Positions 30,319-61,962 are shown, numbered from the stretch's first letter. The stretch: 64,000 nt of DNA from an uncultured bacterium (GCA_964584775.1 CAZPBC010000002.1:19627-83626); one strand, 5' to 3'. Notes: generated by a model not told the origin, from the letters alone. Numbers and translations are program-made.

Positions 30319-30327
30319 CCTCAGGCG

Positions 30328-31329
30328 TTAGAAGCCGACACCCATGCCTACAAAGAGGCCGTGCATCATCAAGTTTCCACCTGTAGACGAAGTCGTTGTC
30401 TGCTGCCCTGCAATCCCATATTGACGGATCTGTGCGACATTCCACCAATCGGTGAACTCATATCCAATGCGGAAGGTGAAATCGCGGTCGCACCAGCATT
30501 TGTCGTAAGAGAGTCCCACCTGTAGATGAACACCTGGGGTGCAGAGACCCTTATCGTCGCTATACTCTCTCGCTCCTATGAAGGTGTCACTCACAAAAAA
30601 CGACTCCTCTCTCTCAACATCGTTGCAACCAGCCACGAAGGAGACACCCGCACGGGTGAAGAGTCCTAAACCACATTCAAGGTCATAGTTGTAAAGAGCT
30701 CCAAGCTCAAGACCGAGAGCTTTGTAATCAGAGATCCAGGATAAGTCGGTAAAGTTGCCAATCGCAACCGTCTGGTTACGCTGGACCAGTCCCTGACGGA
30801 TTTTGACTCCTTGGATTCCAAAGAAGGGCTTGATCTTCTGACACTTACAGAAGCAGAACTCATACCCAAGAAGCACATCAAAGGTTTGATAAGTGAGCGT
30901 GTTCCTTGCATCGATCTCACCAAGAGTGCTGTTAGGATCAGAACCGTTGGAGCTGATCAAAGCCACATTGGTTCCCGATTCCACATGATCACTTCCGCTC
31001 GCCCAAAGATAGGTGTAGGATGCACACATGTCCCAGCCGCAATAGACATTTTCTTTTCCTGCATAGAGACGGAACCCAGGCTCCCAGCCCATCGGAGCGT
31101 AGTGGGGCTCAGCAGCTGTCAAATTTGTGACAGAGGTGTCGATGGTGACACCATACTGAGGGTTATCCTTGCAAACATTCCAGAAAAGAAAGTCAGCGCC
31201 GACACTCCAACCCCCACAGGGATCGAAGCACTCATCGGTCGGGCAGCATTGATCTGCCTGTATTGGAGACACTTGAAGTGCAAACAACGCACTCAAAGTG
31301 AGTAGTTTTCGGAAAAATTGGCTCATCAA
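30328..31329 (-). CDS. Cysteine-rich beta-barrel OMP, paralogue 2
   Basis: 333 aa; signal peptide, CCPTDECFDPCGGWSVGADFLFWNVCK, CFCKCQ, LCTPGVHLQVGLSYDKCWCD, NLMMHGLFVGMGVGF. Confidence 0.88.
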   Translation of the reverse strand: MMSQFFRKLLTLSALFALQVSPIQADQCCPTDECFDPCGGWSVGADFLFWNVCKDNPQYGVTIDTSVTNLTAAEPHYAPMGWEPGFRLYAGKENVYCGWDMCASYTYLWASGSDHVESGTNVALISSNGSDPNSTLGEIDARNTLTYQTFDVLLGYEFCFCKCQKIKPFFGIQGVKIRQGLVQRNQTVAIGNFTDLSWISDYKALGLELGALYNYDLECGLGLFTRAGVSFVAGCNDVEREESFFVSDTFIGAREYSDDKGLCTPGVHLQVGLSYDKCWCDRDFTFRIGYEFTDWWNVAQIRQYGIAGQQTTTSSTGGNLMMHGLFVGMGVGF

Positions 31330-31395
31330 AAGCTCCTTGTCTCGTTAAAAAATTGCTATATTATTCTGAAGATAGGTCAACGGACGATTTAGTGC

Positions 31396-31428
31396 AAAAA
31401 AAGGAGCCCTAAAAAGGACTCCTTTTTC
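31396..31428 (-). terminator. Bidirectional hairpin terminator after OMP paralogue 3
   Basis: A-run, GGAGCCC-taaaaa-GGACTCC, T-run. Lies 24 nt beyond the stop. Confidence 0.6.
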
Positions 31429-31452
31429 TTTAAATCAGCTAGACGGATCCGT

Positions 31453-32439
31453 TTAGAAGCCGACATTCGCTCCTAAGAAGAGACCGTGCATCATCAGGTT
31501 TCCGCCTGTCGAATGTGTCGAAGTGGGAAGACCCGATGCAGGGTAGCGGCGCACCAATGGAACATTCCACCAGTTTTGGAACTCATATCCCACACGGAAA
31601 CCAAAGTCCCATCCACACCAGCACTTCTCGTAGGTCAATCCCACTTGCAGTTGCAGTCCAGGGGTACAAAGGCCTCTGTCATCTATTAAATCATTTACAA
31701 AAATGGAAGAACCATTGTTCACAAGGTCAACCAATTCAGAGTCGTCGTTTCCAGCAACAAAAGAGACGGCCGTTTTTGTGAAGAGTCCTACTCCACAATC
31801 CAAGTCGTAGCTATAGACCGTTCCAAGCTCGAGCCCAAGAGCTTTGTAGTCCGACTGCCAACCTACAGCATTGAGACTCAAAGTAGGGCTTGATTGAAGG
31901 ATCTCAACTTGAGCATATTGTTGCTTAATTTTTACGCCTTGAATCCCAAAGAAAGGTCTGATTCTCTGACACTTGCAGAAGCAAAACTCATATCCTAAGA
32001 GAACATCGAATGTCTGGTATGTCAGGTTGTTTTGAGCTGCGATTGCTTCAGCAGGCTTCTGAGTTAATCCAATGGTGTTGACAAGGGTAGAGTTGGTATC
32101 GTCAAGTCCCTTCGTATCGCCATCGGCAGAAACACGTGTGTAAGAAGCATAGAAGTCCCATCCGCAGAAAACATTTTCTTTTCCTAGGAAGACGCGGAAT
32201 CCAGGCTCCCATCCAATTGGAGCGTACTGGTATGTGGCTTCAAGTTCGTTGGTCGAGCTCACGAGCGTCGCCGCATAGTCAGGGTTGTCTTTACAGATAT
32301 TCCAGTATAGGAAGTCCGCACCGACGCTCCATCCACCACACGGATCAAAGCATTCATCTTGTGGACAGCAGTTATCTGCCTGAATATGAGCAGCTTGCAT
32401 TGAAACTAATGCCAGTGCTGCAAAGAAAATTCGTTTCAT
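31453..32439 (-). CDS. Cysteine-rich beta-barrel OMP, paralogue 3
   Basis: 328 aa; CCPQDECFDPCGGWSVGADFLYWNICK; C-terminal NLMMHGLFLGANVGF. Confidence 0.88.
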   Translation of the reverse strand: MKRIFFAALALVSMQAAHIQADNCCPQDECFDPCGGWSVGADFLYWNICKDNPDYAATLVSSTNELEATYQYAPIGWEPGFRVFLGKENVFCGWDFYASYTRVSADGDTKGLDDTNSTLVNTIGLTQKPAEAIAAQNNLTYQTFDVLLGYEFCFCKCQRIRPFFGIQGVKIKQQYAQVEILQSSPTLSLNAVGWQSDYKALGLELGTVYSYDLDCGVGLFTKTAVSFVAGNDDSELVDLVNNGSSIFVNDLIDDRGLCTPGLQLQVGLTYEKCWCGWDFGFRVGYEFQNWWNVPLVRRYPASGLPTSTHSTGGNLMMHGLFLGANVGF

Positions 32440-32506
32440 CGATCACTCCATTTTTGATCAGTTCAAAATATATTTCCTCCTTATAAAACATTTTCTTATT
32501 AACAAC

Positions 32507-32536
32507 AAAAAAAAAGAGCTTCAAAGAAGCTCTTTT
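32507..32536 (-). terminator. Bidirectional hairpin terminator after OMP paralogue 4
   Basis: A-run, AAGAGCTTC-aaa-GAAGCTCTT, T-run. Lies 25 nt beyond the stop. Confidence 0.65.
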
Positions 32537-32561
32537 GCACATTATGAATTCATTGACCGGA

Positions 32562-33542
32562 CTAAAAACCCACATCCATGCCAAGAAAGAGGCCATGCAT
32601 CATCAGATGCCCATCGTTTCCAGAGGTCGAAGCGAAGAAAACGGGTACAGCGTACTCGCGAATCTGTGCTACATTCCACCAGTTCGTGAATTCATAGCCA
32701 ATATGAAAGTTGAAGACCCTCTCACACCAGCAATGGTCGTAGTTCAAACCGAGCTGAAGATGCATTCCAGGGGTGCAGAGGCTCGTTTCACTTTTAATAT
32801 CACGCCTGAATATGGAAACACCCCCAGACGTCTCTTCAAAGACCAGATCATCGCTCGTTCCCGCCACAAAAGAAACTGAGGCTCTGGTGAAGAGTCCTAG
32901 TCCGCAGTCGAGGTTGTAGCTGTAAATGGAACCCAGCTCAAGACCGAGGGCCTTGTAGTCAGAGTTCCAAATGACCTTGTTGATCGTTGGAGCCTGGAAG
33001 AACTCGCTCAGTTGGTCGAAATTCTGCTCAAGGCGGACTCCCTGAATTCCAAAGAAGGGTTTGATGGTTTGACACTGGCAAAAACAGTAGTCATAGCCCA
33101 AAAGCACTTCAAATGTTTGGTAATTGAGGGTGTTCTTTGCTGTCGCAGCTGCCACGTTGTTCTGGAAAATCCCTGTGGTCACCACAAAGGTGGTATTCTC
33201 ATTTTCAACGCGGTCATGCCCGCTTGCATACATATAAGTGTAAGAGGCAGAGAGATCCCACCCACAAAACACGTTCTCCTTACCCGCATAGACTCTGAAA
33301 CCAGGTTCCCAGCCATAAGTGGCATAATGATAGGTGTTGTCTAGAACATCGACCACACCCGTTTCGATGGTAACGGCATAGTTTGGGTTGTTTTTACAGA
33401 CGTTCCAGTAGAGAAAATCAACGCCGACGTTCCAACCACCACATGGGTCAAAGCACTCATTCGTCGGGCAGCAGTCATCCGCTTGGACTAGTGCACACTG
33501 CAAGAAAACAACCGCTAAAGCCGCAGATAAAACTCTTTTCAT
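32562..33542 (-). CDS. Cysteine-rich beta-barrel OMP, paralogue 4
   Basis: 326 aa; CCPTNECFDPCGGWNVGVDFLYWNVCK; HLMMHGLFLGMDVGF. Confidence 0.88.
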   Translation of the reverse strand: MKRVLSAALAVVFLQCALVQADDCCPTNECFDPCGGWNVGVDFLYWNVCKNNPNYAVTIETGVVDVLDNTYHYATYGWEPGFRVYAGKENVFCGWDLSASYTYMYASGHDRVENENTTFVVTTGIFQNNVAAATAKNTLNYQTFEVLLGYDYCFCQCQTIKPFFGIQGVRLEQNFDQLSEFFQAPTINKVIWNSDYKALGLELGSIYSYNLDCGLGLFTRASVSFVAGTSDDLVFEETSGGVSIFRRDIKSETSLCTPGMHLQLGLNYDHCWCERVFNFHIGYEFTNWWNVAQIREYAVPVFFASTSGNDGHLMMHGLFLGMDVGF

Positions 33543-33591
33543 AAATCCTCCATTTTAAAATTTGAAAATAGAGCAATTGATCATTTAGCAC

Positions 33592-33625
33592 AAAAAAAAA
33601 GAGCCTCACCTGGAGACTCTTTTTC
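33592..33625 (-). terminator. Hairpin terminator of OMP paralogue 5, displaced from the stop codon by the repeat insertion
   Basis: A9, GAGCCTC-acctg-GAGACTC, T-run. Confidence 0.55.
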
Positions 33626-33651
33626 ACTTTAGAATTCCTAGAGCTCGCTTG

Positions 33652-33815
33652 CCTGGATATTTCATGAAGACTTGTGAAAATGGGGCAAAATGACCGGCAA
33701 ATTCGATAGAACTCACTTGAAGGGAAGGGTTCTACACCCTTTCCGAGAGGGAGTTCTATCGAAGTTGATGAAGGCATTTTGTGACAGTTTTGCGAGTGTT
33801 TATGAAATATCCAGG
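33652..33815. repeat. 164-bp palindromic MITE-like element, copy A
   Basis: Termini are CCTGGATATTTCATGAAGAC... and ...TTTATGAAATATCCAGG. Internal arms pair (TTCGATAGAACTC on both arms) and the centre is GGGAAGGGTTCTACACCCTTTCC. Homologous along its full length to 41183-41347. Directly abuts the stop codon of OMP paralogue 5. Confidence 0.75.
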
Positions 33816-34805
33816 CTAAAACCCGACATCCATGCCCACAAAGAGACCGTGCATCATGAGGTGTCCGTTATTTAGGTTGGTCGAAGAGGGAATATTCCTA
33901 TCAGCAAAGCGAGGAGCCTGTCCCACATTCCACCAATGAGTAAACTCATACCCGACATGGAAGCTCAACTCTTTTTCACACCAGCAGTGATCGTAGTTCA
34001 GACCGACTTGAAGGTGCATTCCCGGAGTGCAGAGGCCCGTTTCGAGTTTAAACTCCTCTGTCGTCACTGTCATCCCCTGCGAGGTCTCTTCAAAAAGTAC
34101 ACCATCGTTGGTTCCGGCGACTAAAGAGGCAGAGGCTCTCGTAAAGAGTCCTACCCCACAGTCAAGGTTGTAGCTGTACAGAGAGCCGAGCTCAAGGCCG
34201 AGCGCTTTGTAGTCAGAGTTCCAAATCACCTTATTGTTGTTTGGAGCTTGCAAGAACTCGCTGAACTGATCGAAGTTCTGCTCCAGGCGCAGACCCTGGA
34301 TTCCGAAGAAGGGCTTGATGGTTTGGCACTGACAAAAGCAGTAGTCATAGCCCATCAGAACTTCAAATGTTTGGTAATTGAGGCTGTTTTTCGCTGTCAC
34401 TGCTGCGACATCGCCCAGAAAAACCCCTGTGGTGACCACGATGGTCATATTTTCATTGTCTACACGGTCCTGCCCGCTTGCATAGATGTAGCTATAAGAA
34501 GCTGCGAGATCCCATCCACAAAAGACATTCTCCTTGCCTGCGTAGACCCTGAAACCGGGTTCCCAGCCATAGCCTGCAAAGTGATAGGTGAAGTCAAGGT
34601 CATCGACCACACCCGTTTGGATGGTCACGGCGTAGTCTGGGTTGTTTTTACAGACGTTCCAATAAAGAAAATCGACACCCACACTCCATCCACCGCAAGG
34701 ATCAAAGCATTCACTTGTCGGACAGCAGTCGTCTGCTGAAAGGGAAGAAGCATGTACAGAGAAGAGAGCTAAGAGAGCGAGAAAACTGGATTTAAATGAG
34801 TTCAT
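33816..34805 (-). CDS. Cysteine-rich beta-barrel OMP, paralogue 5
   Basis: 329 aa; CCPTSECFDPCGGWSVGVDFLYWNVCK; HLMMHGLFVGMDVGF. Confidence 0.88.
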   Translation of the reverse strand: MNSFKSSFLALLALFSVHASSLSADDCCPTSECFDPCGGWSVGVDFLYWNVCKNNPDYAVTIQTGVVDDLDFTYHFAGYGWEPGFRVYAGKENVFCGWDLAASYSYIYASGQDRVDNENMTIVVTTGVFLGDVAAVTAKNSLNYQTFEVLMGYDYCFCQCQTIKPFFGIQGLRLEQNFDQFSEFLQAPNNNKVIWNSDYKALGLELGSLYSYNLDCGVGLFTRASASLVAGTNDGVLFEETSQGMTVTTEEFKLETGLCTPGMHLQVGLNYDHCWCEKELSFHVGYEFTHWWNVGQAPRFADRNIPSSTNLNNGHLMMHGLFVGMDVGF

Positions 34806-34869
34806 GAAGGGTCCTCCGACTTGTTTGTTCTCAAAATAGACTTTTCACGAATTTAGAACAAAAAAAGGA

Positions 34870-34903
34870 GCCTCAAAAGAGACTCCCTTTTTTAGTCATT
34901 GGT
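34870..34903 (-). terminator. Bidirectional hairpin terminator after OMP paralogue 6
   Basis: A7, GGAGCCTC-aaaa-GAGACTCC, T-run. Lies 13 nt beyond the stop. Confidence 0.6.
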
Positions 34904-34916
34904 ACAAACAACGGGC

Positions 34917-35924
34917 TTAGAAGCCGACGTCCATTCCAAGCACAAGACCGTGCATCATGAGGCTTTCGCCTGAAGCAGAAGTCGTTGTGAAGTTACCTGG
35001 AGAAGGGAAGCGGCGAGCTTGTGCCACATTCCACCACTCTTGGAACTCGTATCCAACATGGAATGTAAAGATACGGTCACACCAGCACTTGTCGTAGCAG
35101 AAAAGAACCTGCAGGTTCAGTCCAGGTGTGCAAAGTCCAGAGTCCGAACGGAAAGTCTGTGTTGTATCTGTAGAAACACCGTCAGTAAACTGGATGTTTT
35201 TTACATCGTTGTTACCAGCTACGAGAGAAACACCCGCTTTAGTGCAGAAGTTTAGTCCGCACTCAAAGGCGTACTTGTAGCTAGATCCAAACTCAAGACC
35301 GAGAGCTTTGTAATCAGATGTCCAAGAGACTGTCTGAGACTCAGCAGCTGTCTCGTTACGAGCATCAAGACCTTGCTTGATTTTCACACCTTGAAGACCA
35401 AAGAAAGGAGTAAAGAGGTGTCCTTGGCAGATGCAGCACTCGTAGTGCATCAACACATCAAAAGTTTGATAGTTGAGTGTGTTCTTCGCTTCTATTGCAG
35501 TCAAGCTGTTGAGAGGCTGGAAGAAGTAAGTCGATCCCAATCCAACGATTGGAGATGCGAGCTCTACACGCTCATGACCGGTTGCGTAGTAGTCGGTGTA
35601 AGAAACCGTTAGGTCCCATCCGCAGTAGACGTTTTCTTTACCAAGGCGTAGACGGAAGCCAGGGTTCCAGCCCATATCTACATAGTGGTCTGTTACAGCA
35701 GTTGTATTTGAGTCAACCTGCACATTTGAAGTTCCGTACAGTAGGTTTCCTCTGCAGGCTTTCCAATACAGGAAGTCCGCACCGAAGCTCCATCCCCCGC
35801 AAGGGTCGAAGCACTCATCACAGCAGTCACTATTAGCATAATGATACTCTGCCTGAACTTGGGCTGTCATCAATGTGAAGATGGAAAGCAGCCCTAAGCT
35901 AAAATTTCGAATTTGATTTTTCAT
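34917..35924 (-). CDS. Cysteine-rich beta-barrel OMP, paralogue 6
   Basis: 335 aa; CCDECFDPCGGWSFGADFLYWKACR; SLMMHGLVLGMDVGF. Confidence 0.88.
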   Translation of the reverse strand: MKNQIRNFSLGLLSIFTLMTAQVQAEYHYANSDCCDECFDPCGGWSFGADFLYWKACRGNLLYGTSNVQVDSNTTAVTDHYVDMGWNPGFRLRLGKENVYCGWDLTVSYTDYYATGHERVELASPIVGLGSTYFFQPLNSLTAIEAKNTLNYQTFDVLMHYECCICQGHLFTPFFGLQGVKIKQGLDARNETAAESQTVSWTSDYKALGLEFGSSYKYAFECGLNFCTKAGVSLVAGNNDVKNIQFTDGVSTDTTQTFRSDSGLCTPGLNLQVLFCYDKCWCDRIFTFHVGYEFQEWWNVAQARRFPSPGNFTTTSASGESLMMHGLVLGMDVGF

Positions 35925-35961
35925 TTAAAAATCGCTCCTTATTGATTCATATATTTTGGGC

Positions 35962-36975
35962 TTAGAAGCCAATATCCATTCCAACAAATAGTCCGTGCAT
36001 CATCAAGTTTCCGATAGAGCCTGATGTTGTCACGTTGCCTCCAGGTAGAGGATGTTGACGCACTTGTGGGATATTCCACCAGTCTTGGAACTCGTATCCA
36101 GCGTGGAAGCTGAAGACACGGTCACACCAGCACTTCTCGAAAGAGAATCCAACTTGAACGTGCATTCCTGGAGAGCAGTACCCAGGATTTCCAGTGAACT
36201 CTAAACTTTCAATCGCAGAACCATCGTCAATCTGTTCAATATCTTGATAGTCGTTGTTACCAGCAACAAGGGAAAGAGACGCTTTTGTGAAGAGTCCGAG
36301 TCCACACTGTAGGCTGTACTGGTACATCGTTCCAAGCTCAAGACCTAGAGCTTTGTAAGTCGACTCCCATGCGATTGTTTCTATGGGAAACTCGTCGTCA
36401 GTAAGGTGTGCAAGAGAGTCAAAGTTTTGCTGAATACGAACGCCTTGAATTCCAAAGAAAGGCTTCACAGACTGGCACTCACAGAAGCAGTACTCATATC
36501 CCATAAGGACATCAAAATCTTGATACTGAAGGCTGTTCTTCGCGTTGATGTCGAAGAGGCTGTCAGAAGTAAAGCCCACTGTATTCACAAGGGTATTGTT
36601 TCCAGCTTCAACAAAGTTGCTTCCGTTGGAGCGGAAGAAAGTATAAGAGGCTGAGAGATCCCATCCACAGTAGACGTTCTCTTTGCCAAGACGGATACGG
36701 AATCCAGGATCCCAGCCCGTATTCGCATACTTGTAGGTCGTTGTGGTCACTGGGGGATTGTTGTCGTCAATGACGACTGCAAAATCAGGGTTGTTTTTGC
36801 AGGCATGCCAGTAAAGGAAGTCAATTCCGACGCTCCAACCACCGCACATGTCACCCACGTCGCAGCAGCTAAAGCAGTCTGTCTCAGGGCAGCAGGTCGC
36901 TGCACTTGCCTGTGCCGTCACCATGGTGAACGCTGCAAGCAAACTTAAGCTTAAGTTTTTGATTGTTTTATTCAT
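35962..36975 (-). CDS. Cysteine-rich beta-barrel OMP, paralogue 7
   Basis: 337 aa; CCPETDCFSCCDVGDMCGGWSVGIDFLYWHACK; NLMMHGLFVGMDIGF. Confidence 0.88.
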   Translation of the reverse strand: MNKTIKNLSLSLLAAFTMVTAQASAATCCPETDCFSCCDVGDMCGGWSVGIDFLYWHACKNNPDFAVVIDDNNPPVTTTTYKYANTGWDPGFRIRLGKENVYCGWDLSASYTFFRSNGSNFVEAGNNTLVNTVGFTSDSLFDINAKNSLQYQDFDVLMGYEYCFCECQSVKPFFGIQGVRIQQNFDSLAHLTDDEFPIETIAWESTYKALGLELGTMYQYSLQCGLGLFTKASLSLVAGNNDYQDIEQIDDGSAIESLEFTGNPGYCSPGMHVQVGFSFEKCWCDRVFSFHAGYEFQDWWNIPQVRQHPLPGGNVTTSGSIGNLMMHGLFVGMDIGF

Positions 36976-37011
36976 AGAGTTCTTACTCCTTGTTTGTTTT
37001 CGTTAAACTTT

Positions 37012-53747: not shown

Positions 53748-55073
53748 CTAGTGCCTCGCAAACGTTTCAGTCCAAGGCCAAATCCATCCCCAGTTCGCTC
53801 CCCGGAAGAGGGAGCCGACGATGATCAAGATGCCTTGAGAGGTCATGAAGGCCGTATAGAGGAAAATCGCAAGGTAGCGGCTACGGTGGAACCAGTAGCC
53901 CTCACCGTGAGGGTTGCGGTCGAGGTAGGGGATGAGTGCAAGGCCGATCACGATCAAGAAAGGCACTCCTATCCCTCCCCAAAAAGCACTGTACGCAACC
54001 ATCTCTTGCAGACCGAGGAAGTACCACGGCGCCTTTGAAGGGTTGGGCGGCTTGCTCGGGTTTGCCGGTTCTTCAAGCGGCGCGTCGATGAGGGAAAGCC
54101 CGAGAACAAGAACTAAAATGACTAAAAAGGCGACAAGCTCAGCGCGGAGAAGATGCGGCCAGGTGAAGACAAAATTGTAGGGGCCTTTGTCGACGGTAGG
54201 ACAAGTCCCCCGCACGAGTTCCATCAATCCGTAGGTACGTTTCACACCTGGAGCAAAAGACTCTTTCGTATCAGACCGTTGCACAACGCGGTAAGGGTCA
54301 GGTCGCAGTTGGTCTGGAGGACGTGAAAGACCTCCATCCTTCCGGATCCGCCAAAAATGGACCCCAATTAAAATGGAGGTGAAGATCGGAAGCACCGCCA
54401 CATGCAAGACATAAAAACGGATCAAGGCATCTTGGCCCACGGTTGTCGAGGCAAGAAGCATCACTTTGTTGATGTTGTACTCAAAGCCTGGAATGTTCGG
54501 CGCATAGCCCGCAATCTCCGCTCCGACCGTGACCGCCCAGAAGGAGAGCTGGTCCCAAGGAAGCAGGTAACCTGTAAAAGAGAGAAGAAGAGTCATCACC
54601 ATCAAGATGACACCGATCACCCAGTTGAACTTGCGCATCCCCTTGTAGGAACCGGTATAGAAGACCCGCGACATATGCAAGAAGACAAAGAGCACCATCA
54701 AATGTGCGCTCCAACGGTGCATGCTGCGGTAGAAGCCTGCAAACGGGGTCGTATCTTGCCAATCTTTCATGATCTGGAAAGCGCGGTCTTCAGCGGGGAT
54801 GTAGTAGAACATCAAAATCACGCCTGAAATCGTCAGGATGAGGAATAGACTGGTCGTGATGGCGCCGAGACCAAGAGTATAAAAGGGATCGAGCGAGTTT
54901 TTGTGGCACTTAACCGGGTGGAAGTGGAGAAAGAAGTTCTTAAAGACGATCTCCGAGCGGTCGACGTCGTTGTTGGGGTAGTTGTGGCGGAAGATCGAGC
55001 GGACAAAGGCGCGTGGGAGATTAAGCAAGTGCTCGAAAAAACTCTCTCTTCTTTTTCCCTTAAACGTTTCCAT
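53748..55073 (-). CDS. Cytochrome b (fused b6 / subunit IV type)
   Basis: 441 aa; HRWSAHLMVLFVFLHMSRVFYTGSY, FTGYLLPWDQLSFWA. Its stop abuts the start of the haem-c gene. Confidence 0.9.
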   Translation of the reverse strand: METFKGKRRESFFEHLLNLPRAFVRSIFRHNYPNNDVDRSEIVFKNFFLHFHPVKCHKNSLDPFYTLGLGAITTSLFLILTISGVILMFYYIPAEDRAFQIMKDWQDTTPFAGFYRSMHRWSAHLMVLFVFLHMSRVFYTGSYKGMRKFNWVIGVILMVMTLLLSFTGYLLPWDQLSFWAVTVGAEIAGYAPNIPGFEYNINKVMLLASTTVGQDALIRFYVLHVAVLPIFTSILIGVHFWRIRKDGGLSRPPDQLRPDPYRVVQRSDTKESFAPGVKRTYGLMELVRGTCPTVDKGPYNFVFTWPHLLRAELVAFLVILVLVLGLSLIDAPLEEPANPSKPPNPSKAPWYFLGLQEMVAYSAFWGGIGVPFLIVIGLALIPYLDRNPHGEGYWFHRSRYLAIFLYTAFMTSQGILIIVGSLFRGANWGWIWPWTETFARH

Positions 55074-55589: not shown

Positions 55590-55727
55590 TTAGTCGTCCT
55601 TATCATTTCGAAAAAGTTCATATTTCACATCCTCGACATCATCGAAGTGTCCCTTCCTCCAAAAGAGATAGGTCACAACAAGCGTCGAAACTCCCATCAG
55701 AGAAGTTAAAAGTAACAGACCATCCAC
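55590..55727 (-). CDS. 45-aa single-TM ORF between the flavoprotein and Rieske genes
   Basis: The GTG start shares a G with the upstream stop (TAGTG). VDGLLLLTSLMGVSTLVVTYLFWRKGHFDDVEDVKYELFRNDKDD. The track's longer 72-aa version would overlap the upstream gene by 82 nt. Confidence 0.45.
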   Translation of the reverse strand: MDGLLLLTSLMGVSTLVVTYLFWRKGHFDDVEDVKYELFRNDKDD

Positions 55728-57556
55728 TATCCAATCCACCGAATTGAGTAATTCATCACATCCATCGTCACAGCTTGAGTCGGGCACTTCTCTGCACAGA
55801 GACCGCAACGGATGCAGAGGTCCTCATCTTTTAACATTGCCGTCCCCATCAAATCAAGCTCAGACTCGTCGATCTCATCCGAGTCCACACTGTAGAGGTT
55901 ATCGACCGCTTGACGCAGTTTCCCATCTCCTTGGTCGAGGTTGAGCTGGCTGAGCGGAACTTGCTTTAAGCAGTTACAAGGACAGACATCGACGCAGCCG
56001 TTGCACTTGATGCAAAGCGCTCCATCGAAGACGGGGTTGACATGGCACTGAAGGCAGCGGTTGGCCTGCTCGTGGGCCGACTCATCGGTGTAGTTATTCT
56101 CCACCATGTTCCAGTTCTCTTTCCTCACTTCCTTCGGCTGAGAGGTCGGGAGAGCGTAGTCGGTGCGGAGGTAGTCTTTATTCCGGATAGGAGAGATCTC
56201 GGTGAACTCGCCAACCACCTCCTGGTAGGGACGTGTCCCTCGGAGGTCTGTGTCAATGGTCCGTGCGGCTTCTTGTCCATGACGGATCGCCGTGATGAAG
56301 AGCGCCGGACCGAAGGCAGCGTCGCCGCCTGCATAGACGCCTTCAACAGAGGTGCGCCCTGTCTCGCGCTCTGTCTGAATGATCCCTCTGTCGATCTTGA
56401 GCTGATCGGCCTTCTCCCAGCCGTTTAGAAAGCTGGTATCCATCGACTGTCCGATGGCAAGAGCGATCGTGTCGCATTCAATCACCGACTCATCTCCCTC
56501 AATGAACTGCGGTGCGAAGCGGCCGTCACTGTCAAAAAGAGAGGAGATTCTTTGGACCTTCAGCCCAACGATTTTGCCCTCCTCATCGCGGAGGATCTCT
56601 TTCGGACCCACACGGTTGACAATGGTCACTCCCTCTTCTAAACCATCTTCAATTTCAAACTCATCCGCCGTCTGCTCATCACGCGCCTCCAGACAGGTCA
56701 TCGTCACCTCAGCGCCGTTCCGTACCGAGGTCCGCGCAACGTCGAAAGCAACGTTCCCCCCCCCAATGACCACCATCTTTCGACCGATCGACCACTTCTC
56801 CTCAGCACAGAGGACCCGTAAATACTCGATTCCTCGGATGACGTCGGGGGCATCTGCACCGGGAATCGGAAGGGAGCGGGAACGCCAGAGACCGATCCCG
56901 ATAAAGATGGCATCGTATTTCTCCTCGAGCTCGCTCATCAAAATATCGCGCCCGACCTTCGTGTTATAGATGATCTTAGCCCCGAGGTGTTCGATCGCAG
57001 CACACTCATTGAGAGCGACTTCGTTCTTCAAACGGTAGTTCGGGACACCGTAGGTGAGCATCCCCCCTGCCATGCGCATCATCTCAAAGACATCCACTTC
57101 ATAGCCGAGGCGGAGGAGGTCGTGAGCGACCGTCAGGGAAGCGACACCTGCGCCGAGGCAGGCCACCTTGAGACCATTTTTCTTTGGCTTTGTCGAGCCA
57201 CGGGCATAAGAATACTCAAGTGATTGAATATGAGCTTTTTTTGAATAACCAAACCACTCATCCAGGTAGCGCTTTTGGGCTCGAATCGTGAGAGTTTTAT
57301 CGACCCGGTCACGGCGGCAAGAGATCTCACACGGGGCCCCACAGATCAAACCACAGATCGAGGCGAAGGGATTCGGTCCACGAGCGATCTTGTAGCCCTC
57401 TAAATAGTTTCCCGCATGGAGCGCCATCATATAGCCGCGGCCATCGGTGTTCACAGGACATCCGTCACGACAGTCGATCTGTCTTAAGTAGTAATCGAGG
57501 TCAGGGACTACCGCATCGTAAAGGGGCTTATAAATCTCTTCAGGATCGTCGGACAT
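55727..57556 (-). CDS. GltD-like NAD(P)H-dependent FAD/FeS oxidoreductase with a C-terminal 2x[4Fe-4S] ferredoxin domain
   Basis: 609 aa. N-terminal helical FeS domain (CPVNTD..NPFASICGLICGAPCEISC), Rossmann motifs VACLGAGVASLTVAHDL and VVIGGGNVAFDVAR, and CIKCNGCVDVCP plus CIRCGLCAEKCP. Confidence 0.85.
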   Translation of the reverse strand: MSDDPEEIYKPLYDAVVPDLDYYLRQIDCRDGCPVNTDGRGYMMALHAGNYLEGYKIARGPNPFASICGLICGAPCEISCRRDRVDKTLTIRAQKRYLDEWFGYSKKAHIQSLEYSYARGSTKPKKNGLKVACLGAGVASLTVAHDLLRLGYEVDVFEMMRMAGGMLTYGVPNYRLKNEVALNECAAIEHLGAKIIYNTKVGRDILMSELEEKYDAIFIGIGLWRSRSLPIPGADAPDVIRGIEYLRVLCAEEKWSIGRKMVVIGGGNVAFDVARTSVRNGAEVTMTCLEARDEQTADEFEIEDGLEEGVTIVNRVGPKEILRDEEGKIVGLKVQRISSLFDSDGRFAPQFIEGDESVIECDTIALAIGQSMDTSFLNGWEKADQLKIDRGIIQTERETGRTSVEGVYAGGDAAFGPALFITAIRHGQEAARTIDTDLRGTRPYQEVVGEFTEISPIRNKDYLRTDYALPTSQPKEVRKENWNMVENNYTDESAHEQANRCLQCHVNPVFDGALCIKCNGCVDVCPCNCLKQVPLSQLNLDQGDGKLRQAVDNLYSVDSDEIDESELDLMGTAMLKDEDLCIRCGLCAEKCPTQAVTMDVMNYSIRWIG

Positions 57557-57637
57557 GCAACCGTATCGTGTTAAATTTTAGAATCTAACAGACTAAAGAA
57601 ATTATTAACAGAAGTGTTCTTTAAGTAAGCAGAAAGC

Positions 57638-57669
57638 TTCCGCAGGCCAAGATCGGCTGGCCTGCGGAA
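57638..57669 (-). terminator. Strong hairpin downstream of the 402-aa membrane protein gene
   Basis: TTCCGCAGGCCA-agatcggc-TGGCCTGCGGAA, a perfect 12-bp stem. The T-tract is weak, so its terminator function is uncertain. Confidence 0.45.
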
Positions 57670-57678
57670 AAGAATCCA

Positions 57679-58887
57679 TTAGCCATAAGAGACGAGTTGA
57701 TCTTCTAGAGGCCGGATATAGGAGATACAGCGTTGTCGCTGGGTATAAGTCGCTCCATTCCGAAACCTTGCAAGTTGAGACCAAAACTCTCTCTCGATAT
57801 CAGGAATAGCGTTGTGGGTAGGCTTTGAACCTACCAAGATATCTGTATACCACTTGTTTTTCTTCCTAATGGCATCAATCGCTGCGCTAAGACATTTACC
57901 ATGAGAAGAGAAGTCGAGCCCAAGCTCCAGCCTTTCAATCTCACGGTTGAAATCACCTATAGCCATCGGAGCCACCACCTGAATAGGAAGGGTCCCTATA
58001 AACTCAACAGTCCGATAAAAAGCATCCACTTTTGCATGCTTATCCCCCTTTCTGTGAGGAAACTTTAGAGCATCTCTTTCACTAGATGCTATCTCCACCT
58101 TATTGATGTGACTTTCTAACAATCGAACAATCTTCTGCGCGTTTACTAGATGATCATCAACGTTAAAGTAGCCTTCTCTGACCTCTGATAAGTTCTCTTG
58201 CTTCTTATCAACCTCGTCTCTCAATTGCTTTAAGTCTAACGCTCCATTCACAATGAATCCTTGCCGATAGAAATGACGTTGGACGATCTCAGCCTTCGCT
58301 TCTTCTGTCGAAAAGAGACTATAATAGACAGGGCTCAACCAAAGAGCCGCTCCTAAGAGAAGAAGTCCAAGGGGGTAGAGGACCGCAGAAGCCACTCCCA
58401 TGATCGACACTAATAGATCTGTGCTGAGTGGTTTCAAGTGCGTTACCGCCTTGTTCCCATATATAATATCACGAGCTAGATGTGCAGAGTGATAGGCCAC
58501 TCCAATCGGAGCCACCACCACTGCGGTAAAAATCGCTGCAACCCAGCGGATAGGATAGCGCAGGGCGGTTGATTGCAAACCACTCAGTAAGCGAAAGAAA
58601 TGACGGACAGCGACACGGGTCACCGCCAAAGCCATCCCCACCAATCCCACAAAAGAGTTCGCACCAGCAGCTGCTCTCTCATACTCGACCTTGGAGCCCG
58701 GGGTAAGGGGAGCAGCACGGAACATCCCAAAAGCAAAGCTCGGCTTCTGGTCCGAAGTAAGATAGTCCCGTGACATCATCCGAGCCAACAGATGTTTATA
58801 CGGAACGTTTTCCACCTTGAGTGCGTAGGTGGGTTCTGTGTGCCGCTGCACGCGGCTTAAATACACTCCTGTAAGAGAAGATTCCAT
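57679..58887 (-). CDS. Paralogue family Y, member 1 (membrane protein with hydrophobic hairpins)
   Basis: 402 aa. Shares with the next gene HLKPLSTD.., ..GAALWLSPVYYSLFSTEEAKAEIVQRHFYRQGFIV, and the N-terminal GVYLSRVQRHTE. Confidence 0.72.
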   Translation of the reverse strand: MESSLTGVYLSRVQRHTEPTYALKVENVPYKHLLARMMSRDYLTSDQKPSFAFGMFRAAPLTPGSKVEYERAAAGANSFVGLVGMALAVTRVAVRHFFRLLSGLQSTALRYPIRWVAAIFTAVVVAPIGVAYHSAHLARDIIYGNKAVTHLKPLSTDLLVSIMGVASAVLYPLGLLLLGAALWLSPVYYSLFSTEEAKAEIVQRHFYRQGFIVNGALDLKQLRDEVDKKQENLSEVREGYFNVDDHLVNAQKIVRLLESHINKVEIASSERDALKFPHRKGDKHAKVDAFYRTVEFIGTLPIQVVAPMAIGDFNREIERLELGLDFSSHGKCLSAAIDAIRKKNKWYTDILVGSKPTHNAIPDIEREFWSQLARFRNGATYTQRQRCISYIRPLEDQLVSYG

Positions 58888-59047
58888 AATCTACCACTCC
58901 TTCGTTTAATCAATAAAAGTTAGGAAAGTACCAGGGTGCCTTTATCGAGGTCGTGCTTCGTCCACTACCTCAACTCATATCGAAGGGGGGAATTATTAAT
59001 CAAGAGCATAACCTGCTGAAAATCAGCTTTTCTTGCTCTACTATCGT

Positions 59048-59893
59048 TTAACCGATTGTGAGCTCTGGAAAAGCTGTGGTAAGGGCGTTATCCAGCCGCG
59101 TGTAGAAGGCTAGCCAATTTTTGACCTCGTCGATATTCGGAAGTCTAACATCCTGAGCCTCAATTTCTTTTAGGTCTCGACGCTCTCTAAACTCACGTCT
59201 GAGCTCGTAAAGATCCCTATCACCGACTTCAAAGACAACATCAAAGCCTTCTCGGCGAAACTCTTGCTCCACTGTATACTCAAAACGCTCTTCTCTCGAA
59301 AGGAAATAGGTTTGTACGGGACGGCTACCAATCAAGGCGCCAAAAACCACGACAGGAATCAACGAAAAACAGGCTAAAGCAACCGTTGTGATAAAAAGAG
59401 CTGCGTCCGTCACAAAAGGCTTCAGCCGCTGCCAGGAGGTAGAGTAGAGCTTTTCACTCGCCTCTTCTCTATTGAAGAAGAGAATAGAAAGTTCATGCAC
59501 AGCAAATATCCCCACACTGAATGGAGCCGCGGCAATAGGACCCAAAATTCCTGCCAAAGTACGGAGAGGAATCTCGACTATGGTTTGTAGACTGACGTAA
59601 GGAGTTATCGTATAACGACAATAATCTAATACCTCATTGAAAAACTTCGATGACAAATCCCACGCTTCTCCAATACTTTCTGCGTCGCCGACCGCTTTCA
59701 GACGTCCCTTCAAATCGAGGTCGGAAACCTTCTCACTCGCACTCTTCAAACTGGACTCACCAATCCGCTTTATAGCCAACTCATGATCCATTTCAAAATC
59801 ACCCCTAGGTGTGCAGTACCTCTGTTGCAGCGTCCTTTCGGTATAATTCAACATTGAAAAATAGAGTCCACCTTGTGTGATTTTGATTGCCAT
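59048..59893 (-). CDS. Paralogue family Y, member 2
   Basis: 281 aa; GLYFSMLNYTER, RLKPFVTD, GALIGSRPVQTYFLSREERFEYTVEQEFRREGFDV. Confidence 0.72.
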   Translation of the reverse strand: MAIKITQGGLYFSMLNYTERTLQQRYCTPRGDFEMDHELAIKRIGESSLKSASEKVSDLDLKGRLKAVGDAESIGEAWDLSSKFFNEVLDYCRYTITPYVSLQTIVEIPLRTLAGILGPIAAAPFSVGIFAVHELSILFFNREEASEKLYSTSWQRLKPFVTDAALFITTVALACFSLIPVVVFGALIGSRPVQTYFLSREERFEYTVEQEFRREGFDVVFEVGDRDLYELRREFRERRDLKEIEAQDVRLPNIDEVKNWLAFYTRLDNALTTAFPELTIG

Positions 59894-60111: not shown

Positions 60112-61962
60112 ATGATTAATAAAGTTAATAAAGATACCAGAAGCCCCGATTCAAGCCCTCCAGCCTCTCCTCCTCCCCCTAAACAACCGCGGTTGTTAGG
60201 TCGAGACGTCCGTGATGAAGCAGGCAGCGTTTCGGGAGATCTCGACAAAATCCTCCAGTTCTTGCGGAGCCTTCCTTCTTCACCTGCAGCATGCTTTTAC
60301 AAAGATAGACTGACGCCTCTCGAGGGACTAGAGACAGAAGCAGAAGTCACTGCAGCACTGTGTAACGCCGTTTCGATCTGGATTCTGTTTAGAATTGAAA
60401 ACAGAAACATAAAGCACCTATTAGACTCGCTCGAAGCTTTTCCCCCCAGTCTTATCCCTCATCTTTTAGGGTATTTGACTAAACAACAGCTGGGGACACC
60501 CAGAGCTGTAGAAAATGTGCTTCCCGATCGATGGTTCTTAAATAACGACTTTTTGGAGAAATTAAACGGTTTACTCTCTCACGAAGATATCCATATTCGA
60601 CTTGGATCAGTGAAGCTTTTACTTCGTGCTAAACAGTGTGGAGCTCCTTTAGACACGAATCTTGTTTCCCGCTTTTTGAATGACTGCTTTCAGGTCATTC
60701 ACTTATCACATCGTGACAAATCCCCGGTCCTTTGGTCCGAACTGATAGAGGTTTTACTTTCCGCTAAAGAACTAGGTATCTCCTTGAATTGGCAAAGAAT
60801 TCTAAGTTCAATCGCAGGCTCTCTTCCAACCAATCCAACCTATGCAAACACGATGCTAAGTGAAATATTGAAAGATCAGTCCACCTCTCTTAGAGAGGAC
60901 GCCGTCACTCCTCTCATGTACCTCCTTCATAATCAAAATGATTCGGTAAAATTCAAGGCTGCTAAATTGTTGATGCTCGCTAAAGAGCATGGAGCCCCAG
61001 TCCAAACCGAGAAGGTCGTCACAACCTTAATGGAACTCTTTTGTAAAGGGGACGATTTAACAAAATTGGACACTGTCAATTTTTTGCTAAAAGCAGAATC
61101 CAAGGGAGCTTCCGTGGAATGGACTCGGCTCGCGTTGGATGTCGACCCTTTGACTCATGAAATTGATGAGCTAAAAATCGAAGCTGCACGCCTTTTAGTC
61201 AGACGCGGACTTGGAGGAATGGCCGTTGATTGGGAGAGAATAAGTGATTTACCCGCACTGATGGCCCCCGAAGAAGGGGAAGTTGAAATTGAAGACTACT
61301 TGGAAAGGCAACTAGACGCTGCCTTGGTGGTGGTAGATGCAAAGGAGAGAGGAGCTCCTGTCAACCTCGATACAGTGATCTCTGTTGCAACTCGCATTCT
61401 GGAAACTGGAGATCGCATGAACCAAGGTAAAGCTGCAAAAATATTGGCCCGCACTAGGGTTAAAACATCCTATCCTCAGGTCGTTCAAACATTGATGGAT
61501 CTTCTCGAAAAATCTCCAAACTTTGAACTGAAGCTGCAGGCAATCAACACTCTTCTAAAAATCCAGAGTGACGGTCATGATATCGATTGGAAAAAAGTTC
61601 TTCCGATACTATCACCAAGCGAGATCGATTCCTCTCATACAGGAAAAGTGGCTCAATTTTGTTCTTTTGAAACAACCAATTATACTAACTTACTTAAGGC
61701 AAAGCTTTTAATGAAATTGGGACTCAGAGGAGTCAACGTCAACTGGGAATTTGTATTGAAGACACTCACTGATCAACTCTCCGATGATGAACCCTCCCAT
61801 TCTCTGCTCGCTGCAAAACAGTTGATCAAAGCGAGAGAGTCAGGGGTCGAGGTAGAGAGCTCTAAAGTGATTGCAACACTCAGGGAACTAATTCAAAAAT
61901 CGATCTTGAATCGAGAGGAAGCCTCTAATCTTCTAAGAAGAGTCGAGTCGTTTCAACCCTGA
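60112..61962 (+). CDS. Repeat protein (HEAT/ARM-like helical repeats) with a Pro-rich N-terminus
   Basis: 616 aa; N-terminal SPDSSPPASPPPPKQP. At least 10 repeats of the type KLLLRAKQCGAPLDTNLV, LLMLAKEHGAPVQTEKVV, VVVDAKERGAPVNLDTVI, LLKIQSDGHDIDWKKVL, QLIKARESGVEVESSKVI. Confidence 0.8.
   Translation: MINKVNKDTRSPDSSPPASPPPPKQPRLLGRDVRDEAGSVSGDLDKILQFLRSLPSSPAACFYKDRLTPLEGLETEAEVTAALCNAVSIWILFRIENRNIKHLLDSLEAFPPSLIPHLLGYLTKQQLGTPRAVENVLPDRWFLNNDFLEKLNGLLSHEDIHIRLGSVKLLLRAKQCGAPLDTNLVSRFLNDCFQVIHLSHRDKSPVLWSELIEVLLSAKELGISLNWQRILSSIAGSLPTNPTYANTMLSEILKDQSTSLREDAVTPLMYLLHNQNDSVKFKAAKLLMLAKEHGAPVQTEKVVTTLMELFCKGDDLTKLDTVNFLLKAESKGASVEWTRLALDVDPLTHEIDELKIEAARLLVRRGLGGMAVDWERISDLPALMAPEEGEVEIEDYLERQLDAALVVVDAKERGAPVNLDTVISVATRILETGDRMNQGKAAKILARTRVKTSYPQVVQTLMDLLEKSPNFELKLQAINTLLKIQSDGHDIDWKKVLPILSPSEIDSSHTGKVAQFCSFETTNYTNLLKAKLLMKLGLRGVNVNWEFVLKTLTDQLSDDEPSHSLLAAKQLIKARESGVEVESSKVIATLRELIQKSILNREEASNLLRRVESFQP

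Follow-up and report, generated by a model that had tools for sequence, protein, structure and literature searches.

Rieske/cytochrome b complexes are textbook Q-cycle machines, and the main unexplained exception is formed by those which bear a flavoprotein. So far, the literature has dealt with such flavoprotein-bearing complexes almost exclusively in anammox bacteria, a group that is difficult to handle; Kartal 2013 and de Almeida 2016 are reportedly the sources on the Kuenenia complexes Kustd1480-1485 and Kuste4569-4574, which include an NAD(P) oxidoreductase subunit. In this study, we analyzed a stretch of 64,000 nucleotides from an uncultured bacterium (GCA_964584775.1, CAZPBC010000002.1:19627-83626), hereafter the window, in which the gene of an iron-sulfur (FeS) flavoprotein resembling the glutamate synthase small subunit GltD opens an operon for a Rieske protein, a cytochrome b, a multihaem cytochrome c and a cbb3-type O2 reductase (Table 1). 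The flavoprotein is likely to be a subunit of the Rieske/cytochrome b complex, whichever direction the electrons take. Tentatively, and with the reservations given below, we propose that it is the cytoplasmic NAD(H)-binding subunit of an APWY-type Rieske/cytochrome b complex and drives quinol-based NAD+ reduction.

Cytochromes b related to that of the window have been classified under several names. Baymann 2012 placed those of Parachlamydia and Waddlia in 'group A2' together with Kuenenia 1 and 2 (PMC3509893). According to Dibrova 2017, cytochromes b of subfamily G co-occur 'in many other cases' with large NAD(P)-binding FeS oxidoreductases, and this co-occurrence was read as an ancestral membrane-anchored dehydrogenase (PMC5600118), while Kao & Hunte 2014 defined an 'APWY clade' and described it as uncharacterised (PMC4122944). 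By its motifs, the window cytochrome b belongs to this subfamily G / group A2 / APWY clade. These classifications deal with cytochrome b and do not cover the operon of chlamydiae, the link to cbb3 or the coenzyme motif. In a reconstruction of chlamydial respiration, the complex appears only as PetBD and CcoNO, and the flavoprotein was not found mentioned there (PMC9816063). Our literature search, outside which several key papers lay, did not turn up any paper that describes the flavoprotein of chlamydiae or an NAD-type variant linked to cbb3. The type of system is known from genomics; as read from its genes, the window holds a distinct variant of it, which is NAD-type, lacks haem cn, has both parts of cytochrome b in one fused protein and is associated with cbb3 and ccoS genes.

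Close homologues of the flavoprotein, with 72-81% identity, are found in Waddlia chondrophila, in Parachlamydiaceae and in further Chlamydiota, and the window also encodes Inc-like membrane proteins, eukaryote-like domains and an array of outer-membrane-protein paralogues. The host is an environmental chlamydia. An identical flavoprotein is present in public metagenome assemblies and more than 5000 homologues were found at E<=1e-20, so the gene is regarded as real.

Comparison with the anammox complexes

The anammox locus L083 was retrieved starting from the sequence of the anammox Rieske structure 9rk3_A. It encodes, in this order, the Rieske protein, cytochrome b6 (275 amino acids, aa), the flavoprotein (566 aa), subunit IV (277 aa) and a multihaem cytochrome c (945 aa), which matches the layout of Kustd1480-1485 described in PMC12954380. 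The flavoproteins of the window and of L083 are 33% identical over the full length (E 5e-94). The window cytochrome b shows 46% identity to anammox b6 and 49% to anammox subunit IV, and the best match of the window Rieske protein in the PDB is 9rk3_A (E 2e-17), which has the Ser/Phe motif reported for Kustd1480. The analogy to anammox Rieske/cytochrome b complexes that had been drawn in the preliminary description is therefore well founded.

The correspondence extends to single residues. From AlphaFold3 models of the anammox complex, a new haem b was proposed to sit between the two halves of the dimer, with His62 from both copies of Kustd1481 as its ligands (PMC12954380). Arg266/Lys267, together with Kustd1483 Arg550, would lie near the propionates of this interfacial haem, and four FeS clusters would then lead to FAD (PMC12954380). 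His50 of the window cytochrome b takes the place of His62, R243/K244 align with Arg266/Lys267, and Lys590 of the window flavoprotein aligns with Kustd1483 Arg550. Residues N46, L49 and H50 are at least 90% conserved in 42 flavoprotein-linked cytochromes b, and the N-x-F-L-H motif which they form is absent from cytochrome b6 and from the flavoprotein-less cytochrome b paralogue in locus L032. By analogy with the anammox models, an interfacial haem may be bound at the His50 pair.

The two systems share a homologous full-length flavoprotein, homologous cytochrome b/subunit IV, the Rieske protein as nearest solved relative, the APWY motif of the Qo site, an N-terminal His of cytochrome b with basic partners, menaquinone paired with a high-potential-type Rieske motif, and a multihaem cytochrome c instead of cytochrome f or c1. 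They differ in gene order and composition, the flavoprotein gene being first in the window but between b6 and subunit IV in anammox bacteria, and cytochrome b being fused in the former and split in the latter. The CxGG cysteine for haem cn is present in anammox but absent from the window, where Gly68 stands in its place, and the coenzyme motif is Leu-Glu-Ala (LEA) in the window versus Tyr-Arg-Arg (YRR) in L083. The high-potential partner is a cbb3 O2 reductase here, whereas it is an HAO-like or other multihaem nitrogen-cycle enzyme in anammox bacteria, and the host is an aerobic heterotrophic endosymbiont as opposed to an autotroph.

Conservation of the linkage and phylogeny

A scan of one genome per GTDB species gave 80 loci, whose six-frame open reading frames (ORFs) were searched with the window proteins. 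A flavoprotein of the same clade is encoded in 48 of them; three end at the flavoprotein gene and are uninformative, which leaves 45. The Rieske and cytochrome b genes immediately adjoin the flavoprotein gene in 42 of the 45 informative loci, and a multihaem cytochrome c gene usually comes next. The linked loci span at least 12 phyla, with the labels Chlamydiota, Verrucomicrobiota, Victivallales, Planctomycetota, Nitrospirota, Acidobacteriota (many), Abyssobacteria, Zixibacteria, Ignavibacteriota, Eisenbacteria, Chloroflexota and Actinomycetota. Linkage in relatives, on which the preliminary description had let its reading depend, is thus widely kept; in Waddlia it is kept gene for gene, the order being identical throughout the operon, and yggT and dus are found upstream as well. 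In the Armatimonadota loci L007, L013 and L038, which belong to the clade, no Rieske or cytochrome b gene was found within the flanks examined (10 kb or to the contig end). The bc genes are also absent around the more distant flavoprotein matches with other architectures (L051-L082).

Genes of the cbb3 oxidase are adjacent in L016 (Verrucomicrobia), L020 (Holophagaceae) and L024 (Ignavibacteriota) too. The order is permuted in L020 (3877-11896), where Rieske protein, cytochrome b, multihaem cytochrome c, CcoN and CcoO are followed by the flavoprotein as the last gene.

Phylogenetic trees were constructed by simple neighbor-joining on automatic alignments. The bc-linked flavoproteins form one clade (85/100 bootstrap replicates), and the chlamydial members group with the cbb3-linked verrucomicrobial protein of L016 (93/100). 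The anammox flavoprotein was expected to nest within this clade, but this was not seen: the clade with 85/100 does not include the anammox copy, which falls outside as sister in 47/100 replicates, with a mean identity of 38% to the clade versus 35% to other sequences. Among 1.84 billion cluster representatives, one chlamydial cluster was found at 77% identity and the next matches at 47%, followed by many full-length proteins of 590-680 aa.

Within Chlamydiota, identities reach 72-78% for the flavoprotein, 62-76% for the Rieske protein and 81-84% for cytochrome b, and 58-61% for CcoN, 53-57% for CcoO and 41-45% for the cytochrome c. The conservation of the flavoprotein tracks the bc core, unlike that of the oxidase and cytochrome c genes. 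Homologues of the flavoprotein in anammox bacteria co-migrate with the complex (cited in PMC12954380 and PMC5600118). Membership in the complex is proposed because of the linkage, the single clade, the bc-like conservation and this co-migration.

The same data bear on the idea that the flavoprotein is a soluble, co-transcribed redox or assembly helper, for example one supplying reducing power for the insertion of cofactors into cbb3 or the cytochromes, and not a subunit of the complex. Such a role would suit a protein that has no membrane segment and whose stop codon in chlamydiae overlaps a ccoS-like assembly gene, and it would suit the Armatimonadota orthologues encoded without adjacent bc genes and the position of the L020 gene after ccoO. 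However, the linkage is with Rieske/cytochrome b and not with cbb3, as oxidase genes and ccoS are missing from most linked loci; the N-terminal extension that brings the His into cytochrome b is confined to cases with the flavoprotein; and both the co-migration in anammox bacteria and the conservation pattern speak for a subunit. We consider the helper improbable.

Anatomy of the flavoprotein and its coenzyme site

The ORF is exactly as described previously, and the described GltD-like layout with an additional C-terminal 2x[4Fe-4S] domain is reproduced by Pfam, by matches in the PDB and by structure prediction with Foldseek comparison. Fer4_20 scores 50.2 bits against a cutoff of 25.8, and Pyr_redox_2 scores 96.7 bits. 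In an alignment of 41 full-length relatives, Cys29, 33, 68, 72, 76 and 80 are invariant or at least 90% conserved, R500, C501 and C504 are invariant and present in all loci, and the eight Cys residues of the C-terminal ferredoxin domain are all invariant. All 16 cluster cysteines are thus invariant or nearly so, which is enough for four [4Fe-4S] clusters, and the C501/C504 pair presumably completes the N-terminal cluster pair. Hydropathy analysis found no hydrophobic segment in the protein, which is therefore taken as soluble.

The closest solved structures by sequence are the NfnB-like subunits of NfnABC/StnABC, followed by NfnB, GltD and DPD. An AlphaFold2 (AF2) model built on the 41 relatives is confident across all 609 residues (pLDDT 93.5, pTM 0.91). 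Foldseek searches with this model gave TMq values of 0.68-0.69 over about 600-644 columns to 9bov_A, 9n5u_A and 8oh5_C, TMt values of 0.77-0.80 to NfnB and GltD, and a probability of 1.00 to NfnB, GltD and DPD. Fold and cofactor sites are shared with NfnB, GltD and domain I-III of DPD and with the NfnB-like subunit of StnABC/NfnABC, but enzymes of the NfnB/GltD/StnABC type are NADPH-using with YRR and have NfnA, GltB or HydABC-like partners. DsrL displays the same four-part layout (PMC7596348): an N-terminal 2x[4Fe-4S] domain is followed by an FAD domain, within which the NAD(P) domain is embedded, and a linker of roughly 100 aa connects these to a 2x[4Fe-4S] ferredoxin domain at the C terminus. 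The StnA-type layout matches likewise. The partner of DsrL is the soluble sulfite reductase DsrAB, whereas the partner genes in the window encode membrane cytochrome b, Rieske protein and cbb3. In the window flavoprotein, the CxxC that presumably completes the N-terminal clusters lies after the core (R500-C-x-x-C504), unlike in DsrL.

These similarities raise the question of whether the protein is an ordinary GltD, NfnB, DsrL or SfrB whose partner is encoded elsewhere. The names of its relatives in databases include 'glutamate synthase beta subunit-like', 'formate dehydrogenase beta subunit' and 'NADPH-Fe(3+) oxidoreductase subunit beta', its architecture equals that of DsrL and its fold that of NfnB and GltD. 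Against such an assignment, all NCBIfam matches are below cutoff (gltA with 259 versus 472, the GltD families with 177-213 versus about 450-480), the YRR of NADPH enzymes is absent, and the protein sits in a clade defined by bc linkage. The preliminary description had also remarked on the missing large subunit, and indeed a scan of window ORFs that comprised most, though not all, of those of at least 150 aa detected neither a GltB-like or NfnA-like gene nor dsrAB nor a catalytic gene of formate dehydrogenase. On these grounds GltD of glutamate synthase and NfnB were ruled out as identities, and we regard an ordinary soluble enzyme of any of these kinds as very improbable. Flavin-based bifurcation of the NfnAB kind was rejected as well: the FAD of NfnB bifurcates between two exits, whereas the window shows no gene for a second exit partner.

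The coenzyme had been given as NAD(P)H in the preliminary description. A nicotinamide-dinucleotide site is present, but it is of the NAD(H) type and not of the NADP(H) type. YRR, which binds the 2'-phosphate of NADPH in NfnB, is kept in all solved relatives and in anammox L083, and residue-level alignments show it in NfnA, StnA and NfnI at the positions aligned with the window LEA. Every other non-anammox bc-linked flavoprotein has x-Leu-Glu at the YRR position. Kinetics of DsrL proteins revealed that YRR enzymes use NADP(H) only, and YRR-less enzymes use NAD(H) (PMC7596348). The flavoprotein is predicted to be NAD(H)-specific because LEA replaces YRR and these kinetics tie YRR to NADP(H); among bc-linked flavoproteins, as among DsrL proteins, presence or absence of YRR would separate users of NADP(H) from users of NAD(H).

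Two further features were observed at this site. An insertion of 24-40 aa directly after GGGNVAxDVAR occurs in L009, L011, L012, L015, L023, L033, L034 and L047; it consists of a repeated D-x-A-R-T/S-A-x-R helix, is found in many planctomycete and acidobacterial members, and recalls the insertion of about 32 aa at the NAD site of DsrL-1A. In the Armatimonadota loci L007, L013 and L038, the NAD-site motif deviates, with F-G-E-S or I-P-E-S and not C/S-L-E.

Rieske protein, cytochromes and O2 reductase

Ser and Tyr in box 2 of the window Rieske protein correspond to the high-potential type by motif comparison; the Ser/Tyr motif correlates with high potential (PMC3509893), and two anammox Rieske relatives were measured at +303 and +335 mV (PMC12954380). 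The cytochrome b matches b6 at E 4e-37. Its APWY motif was found in 42 of 43 bc-linked loci, and the CxGG cysteine for haem cn only in L083 and L006. The top NCBIfam matches of this cytochrome b are ExtP and ExtQ of the Geobacter selenite/tellurite ext operon (245 and 73 bits, below cutoff), which suggests that the ext-cluster cytochromes b belong to the same APWY group.

The cytochrome c is a heptahaem protein whose position is conserved among relatives. The CcoP-like haem domain in its C-terminal part matches TIGR00782 at 48.6 bits, below cutoff, and no separate dihaem ccoP gene is found in the cluster. The last 200 aa or so (50085-50720) are Glu/Lys-rich and coiled-coil-like, without a haem motif. 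Chlamydial orthologues are longer still (1291 aa in Waddlia), and this is the least conserved product of the operon. CcoN aligns with 3mk7_A of Pseudomonas stutzeri (E 1.5e-56), with the His ligands of haem and CuB and the cross-link Tyr of helix VII in register, and it retains the motifs RPxH, YxHN, Y..W.G.HH and GHxH.

CcoN and CcoO are homologous to the proteins in 6xkw, 9g83 and 3mk7. In the bc1-cbb3 supercomplex of Rhodobacter capsulatus (CIII2CIV) and in the actinobacterial bcc-aa3 supercomplex (CIII2CIV2), the quinol:cytochrome c module is hard-wired to the oxidase via a membrane-bound multi-domain cytochrome c, as is probable here. Compared with them, the window lacks a separate CcoP, places all genes in a single operon and adds the NAD(H) flavoprotein. 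The bc complex and the cbb3 oxidase are probably joined physically via the heptahaem cytochrome c.

Electron transfer and its direction

The flavoprotein would face the dimer of cytochrome b from the n side and exchange electrons with haem bN. A wire may run from FAD through the two N-terminal [4Fe-4S] clusters and the two C-terminal [4Fe-4S] clusters to the haem b between both His50 residues, and from there to haem bN. It is proposed because the cluster cysteines are conserved, the AF2 model is confident, and His50, R243, K244 and Lys590 align with their anammox counterparts.

Under the proposed quinol-driven NAD+ reduction, electrons would flow along this wire in reverse, from haem bN toward FAD and NAD+. 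Menaquinol would be oxidised at the Qo site, and its first electron would go downhill from the high-potential Rieske protein to the heptahaem cytochrome, CcoO/CcoN and O2. Through this drop, the second electron would become a strong enough reductant to pass along the b haems and the FeS wire to NAD+. Such a quinol-based bifurcation would resemble the one proposed for anammox, except that O2 would provide the pull and that NADH would be formed instead of NADPH. The NADH would re-enter the chain via Nqr or Nuo, which would recover energy that a menaquinol Q cycle wastes.

This direction is slightly favoured over the input of NADH, for several reasons. Environmental chlamydiae make menaquinone (PMC4333871, PMC5826181), and b haems of very low potential are to be expected where a high-potential Rieske protein works with a low-potential quinone, an argument made for NAD(P)+ reduction (PMC12954380) that also applies to menaquinone and the high-potential-type Rieske motif here. 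Here, as in most of the clade, cytochrome b has lost the cysteine for haem cn, which belongs to the b6-type Qn site. Obligatory coupling would predict the strict linkage seen between the Qo module and the flavoprotein, and NAD+ is the better acceptor than NADP+ in vivo (discussion in PMC7596348). Since this chain leads to an O2 reductase whose catalytic residues are intact, the high-potential side would be a sink and not a donor. The reverse operation suggested by Kao & Hunte, in which electrons enter from the high-potential chain, is inapplicable here because this chain ends in the O2 reductase.

Electrons may also travel the other way, and both directions had been put forward in the preliminary description. 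The flavoprotein would then be a built-in NADH dehydrogenase, passing electrons from NADH through FAD, four clusters and the interfacial haem to bN and to menaquinone at an n-side site, which they would reduce either alone or jointly with the electron arriving from Qo, and a single assembly encoded by the operon would carry electrons all the way from NADH to O2. Enzymes that combine an FeS wire with a dihaem cytochrome b normally work in this direction. Every component from NADH to O2 is found within one operon, and each step is thermodynamically downhill. FNR bound at the n side of b6f provides a precedent for electron input there. The NAD(H)-type site is that of a catabolic coenzyme in heterotrophs, whereas the homologue of the autotrophic anammox bacteria is NADPH-type, and the arrangement fits the 'membrane-anchored dehydrogenase' origin proposed for cytochrome b (PMC5600118). 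On the other hand, input of NADH would duplicate what Nqr does and, in this group of chlamydiae, also what Nuo does (PMC9816063, PMC5826181), would conserve no more energy than NDH-2 and would waste much, as argued in PMC12954380. It also leaves unexplained the tie of the flavoprotein to the Rieske/Qo module in at least 12 phyla, the high-potential-type Rieske motifs in menaquinone-using lineages and the loss of the haem cn/Qn motif. We regard input of NADH as possible but doubtful.

A number of points weigh against quinol-driven NAD+ reduction. We estimate that the first electron gains about 374 mV (from -74 to +300 mV), and that the second has to climb about 206-246 mV plus one membrane crossing. 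By this estimate of our own the energetics are tight, and the reaction would be feasible only near equilibrium, with menaquinone, a reduced menaquinone pool and an oxidised NAD pool. To our knowledge, reduction of NAD(P)+ by a Rieske/cytochrome b complex has never been demonstrated in an experiment. It is not obvious what an aerobic heterotroph that runs a tricarboxylic acid cycle would need reverse electron flow for, and an NAD(H)-type site suits a catabolic donor equally well. The anammox flavoprotein, on which the mechanism is modelled, lies outside the bc-linked clade and has the opposite coenzyme motif. Moreover, the Rieske potential and the coenzyme specificity are read from motifs, the loss of the Qi site is putative, and the physical association of the flavoprotein with the complex is one that we infer.

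Operon organization and neighbouring genes

The tightly packed cluster lies between two hairpins with the flavoprotein gene first, as the preliminary description had it when it called this the first gene of a quinol-oxidising operon. The order on the minus strand is flavoprotein, ccoS-like ORF, Rieske protein, fused cytochrome b, heptahaem cytochrome c, CcoN, CcoO and two small transmembrane ORFs, with gaps of at most 3 nt or overlaps down to 47058. The stop codon of the flavoprotein is not fused to the bc genes, as had been stated earlier. The G of its TAG (55729-55727) is also the first base of the GTG opening a 45-codon ORF with a single transmembrane segment, and the ATG of the Rieske gene (55586) comes 3 nt past the stop of that ORF.

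The 45-codon ORF is annotated as a gene in Waddlia (43 aa) and in a Logan assembly of the same organism as the window. The Waddlia orthologue matches the ccoS family TIGR00847 at E 5e-5, below cutoff, and the window copy by itself has no family match in Pfam or NCBIfam. A motif G[QH]F[DE]D..E.[VI]K[YF]..FR is common to the ORFs after the flavoprotein in all four chlamydial loci (L001-L004). Orthology weakly suggests that the ORF is CcoS-like; on this slender evidence from the Waddlia orthologue, an earlier candidate identity as a PetG/L/M/N-like bc subunit was dropped.

Table 1. Features of the flavoprotein-bc-cbb3 operon, with positions counted from the first nucleotide of the window.
Feature	Position (strand)	Description and basis
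FeS flavoprotein ORF	57556..55727 (-)	ATG start, 609 aa; GltD/NfnB core, linker and C-terminal ferredoxin domain
N-terminal helical FeS domain, aa 28-102	57251..57475 (-)	Fer4_20 match; Cys29, 33, 68, 72, 76, 80
FAD and NAD Rossmann domains, aa 130-427	56276..57169 (-)	Pyr_redox_2; GGGNVA motif at 265-270
Leu289-Glu290-Ala291	56684..56692 (-)	End of beta2 of NAD domain; in place of NADPH-specifying Tyr-Arg-Arg
Arg-Cys-Leu-Gln-Cys, aa 500-504	56045..56059 (-)	CxxC C-terminal to flavoprotein core
C-terminal 2x[4Fe-4S] ferredoxin domain, aa 515-596	55769..56014 (-)	Two CxxCxxCxxxCP motifs; Fer4/Fer4_7
45-codon single-transmembrane ORF, putatively CcoS-like (cbb3 assembly factor)	55727..55590 (-)	Hydropathy, orthology
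Rieske [2Fe-2S] protein, 169 aa	55077..55586 (-)	Tat signal, transmembrane anchor; box 2 CPCHGSTY; Pfam, NCBIfam
Fused cytochrome b, 441 aa	53748..55073 (-)	b6-like four helices and subunit IV-like part; Pfam
Cytochrome b His50	54924..54926 (-)	N-terminal extension, motif N-x-F-L-H; aligns with Kustd1481 His62
Qo motif Ala-Pro-Trp-Tyr, aa 348-351	54021..54032 (-)	PSKAPWYF at aa 345-352
Heptahaem cytochrome c, 1220 aa	50085..53747 (-)	N-terminal transmembrane anchor, 7 CxxCH, CcoO-like and CcoP-like domains, C-terminal coiled coil
CcoN, catalytic subunit of cbb3-type (C-family) haem-copper O2 reductase	48683..50104 (-)	COX1, 259 bits
CcoO-like monohaem subunit	47445..48686 (-)	FixO, 87 bits; one CxxCH; long N-terminal extension
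53-aa transmembrane protein after ccoO	47294..47455 (-)	31% identical to Waddlia 57-aa ORF at same position
87-aa transmembrane protein, last cluster gene	47058..47321 (-)	51% identical to Waddlia 84-aa ORF
Hairpin, 14-bp stem and T-rich tail	57670..57637 (-)	Terminates upstream gene; upper boundary of transcription unit
Terminator-like hairpin after last small ORF	47044..47026 (-)	Lower boundary; consensus match only

Upstream of the operon (57679-59893 on the minus and 60112-61962 on the plus strand), two proteins of 402 and 281 aa with paired hydrophobic segments and without a Pfam match, which look Inc-like, and then a HEAT-repeat protein are encoded. The Waddlia operon is directly preceded by acylphosphatase, dus and yggT, and the Inc-like and HEAT genes therefore seem to have been inserted, in the lineage of the window, between the operon and dus. 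Downstream (44094-46880), a RasGEF-domain protein (500 aa, plus strand) and a leucine-rich-repeat protein (425 aa, minus strand) are encoded, which are probable host-interaction effectors.

Three consecutive genes at 10316-17763 on the minus strand (498, 495 and 1441 aa) each contain a microbial-type PARG catalytic domain and look like an expanded effector-like family. A head-to-tail array of eight ORFs of about 326-348 aa is found at 29272-38010, also on the minus strand. It is interpreted as a tandem family of porin-like paralogues because the three members tested match Legionella_OMP, with E values from 1e-25 to 1e-32.

Significance

A related flavoprotein-bearing device is conserved in at least 12 phyla; in the version found here it has a site of the NAD(H) type and is paired with an O2 reductase. 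Its cultivable carriers include Waddlia, Parachlamydia and Protochlamydia, which are grown in amoebae, and with them the direction of electron flow comes within reach of ordinary membrane biochemistry. A flavoprotein-bearing complex is presumably also carried by cultured Planctomycetes, Acidobacteria and Ignavibacterium. The finding bears on the respiratory capacity of environmental chlamydiae and on how menaquinone-based aerobic chains use the large energy gap between menaquinol and cytochrome c.

More generally, menaquinone users may perform an O2-pulled quinol bifurcation in which the second electron goes to NAD+ and not to Qi, so that an 'NADH loop' via Nqr or complex I would replace the Q cycle; we offer this as a conjecture that has some plausibility and that we hold with considerable doubt. 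If true, the NADH loop would raise the ion/O ratio, and environmental chlamydiae, Acidobacteriota, Planctomycetota, Verrucomicrobiota and Ignavibacteriota would be candidates for it. Rieske/cytochrome b complexes would then have a third operating mode, widespread beyond the anammox bacteria.

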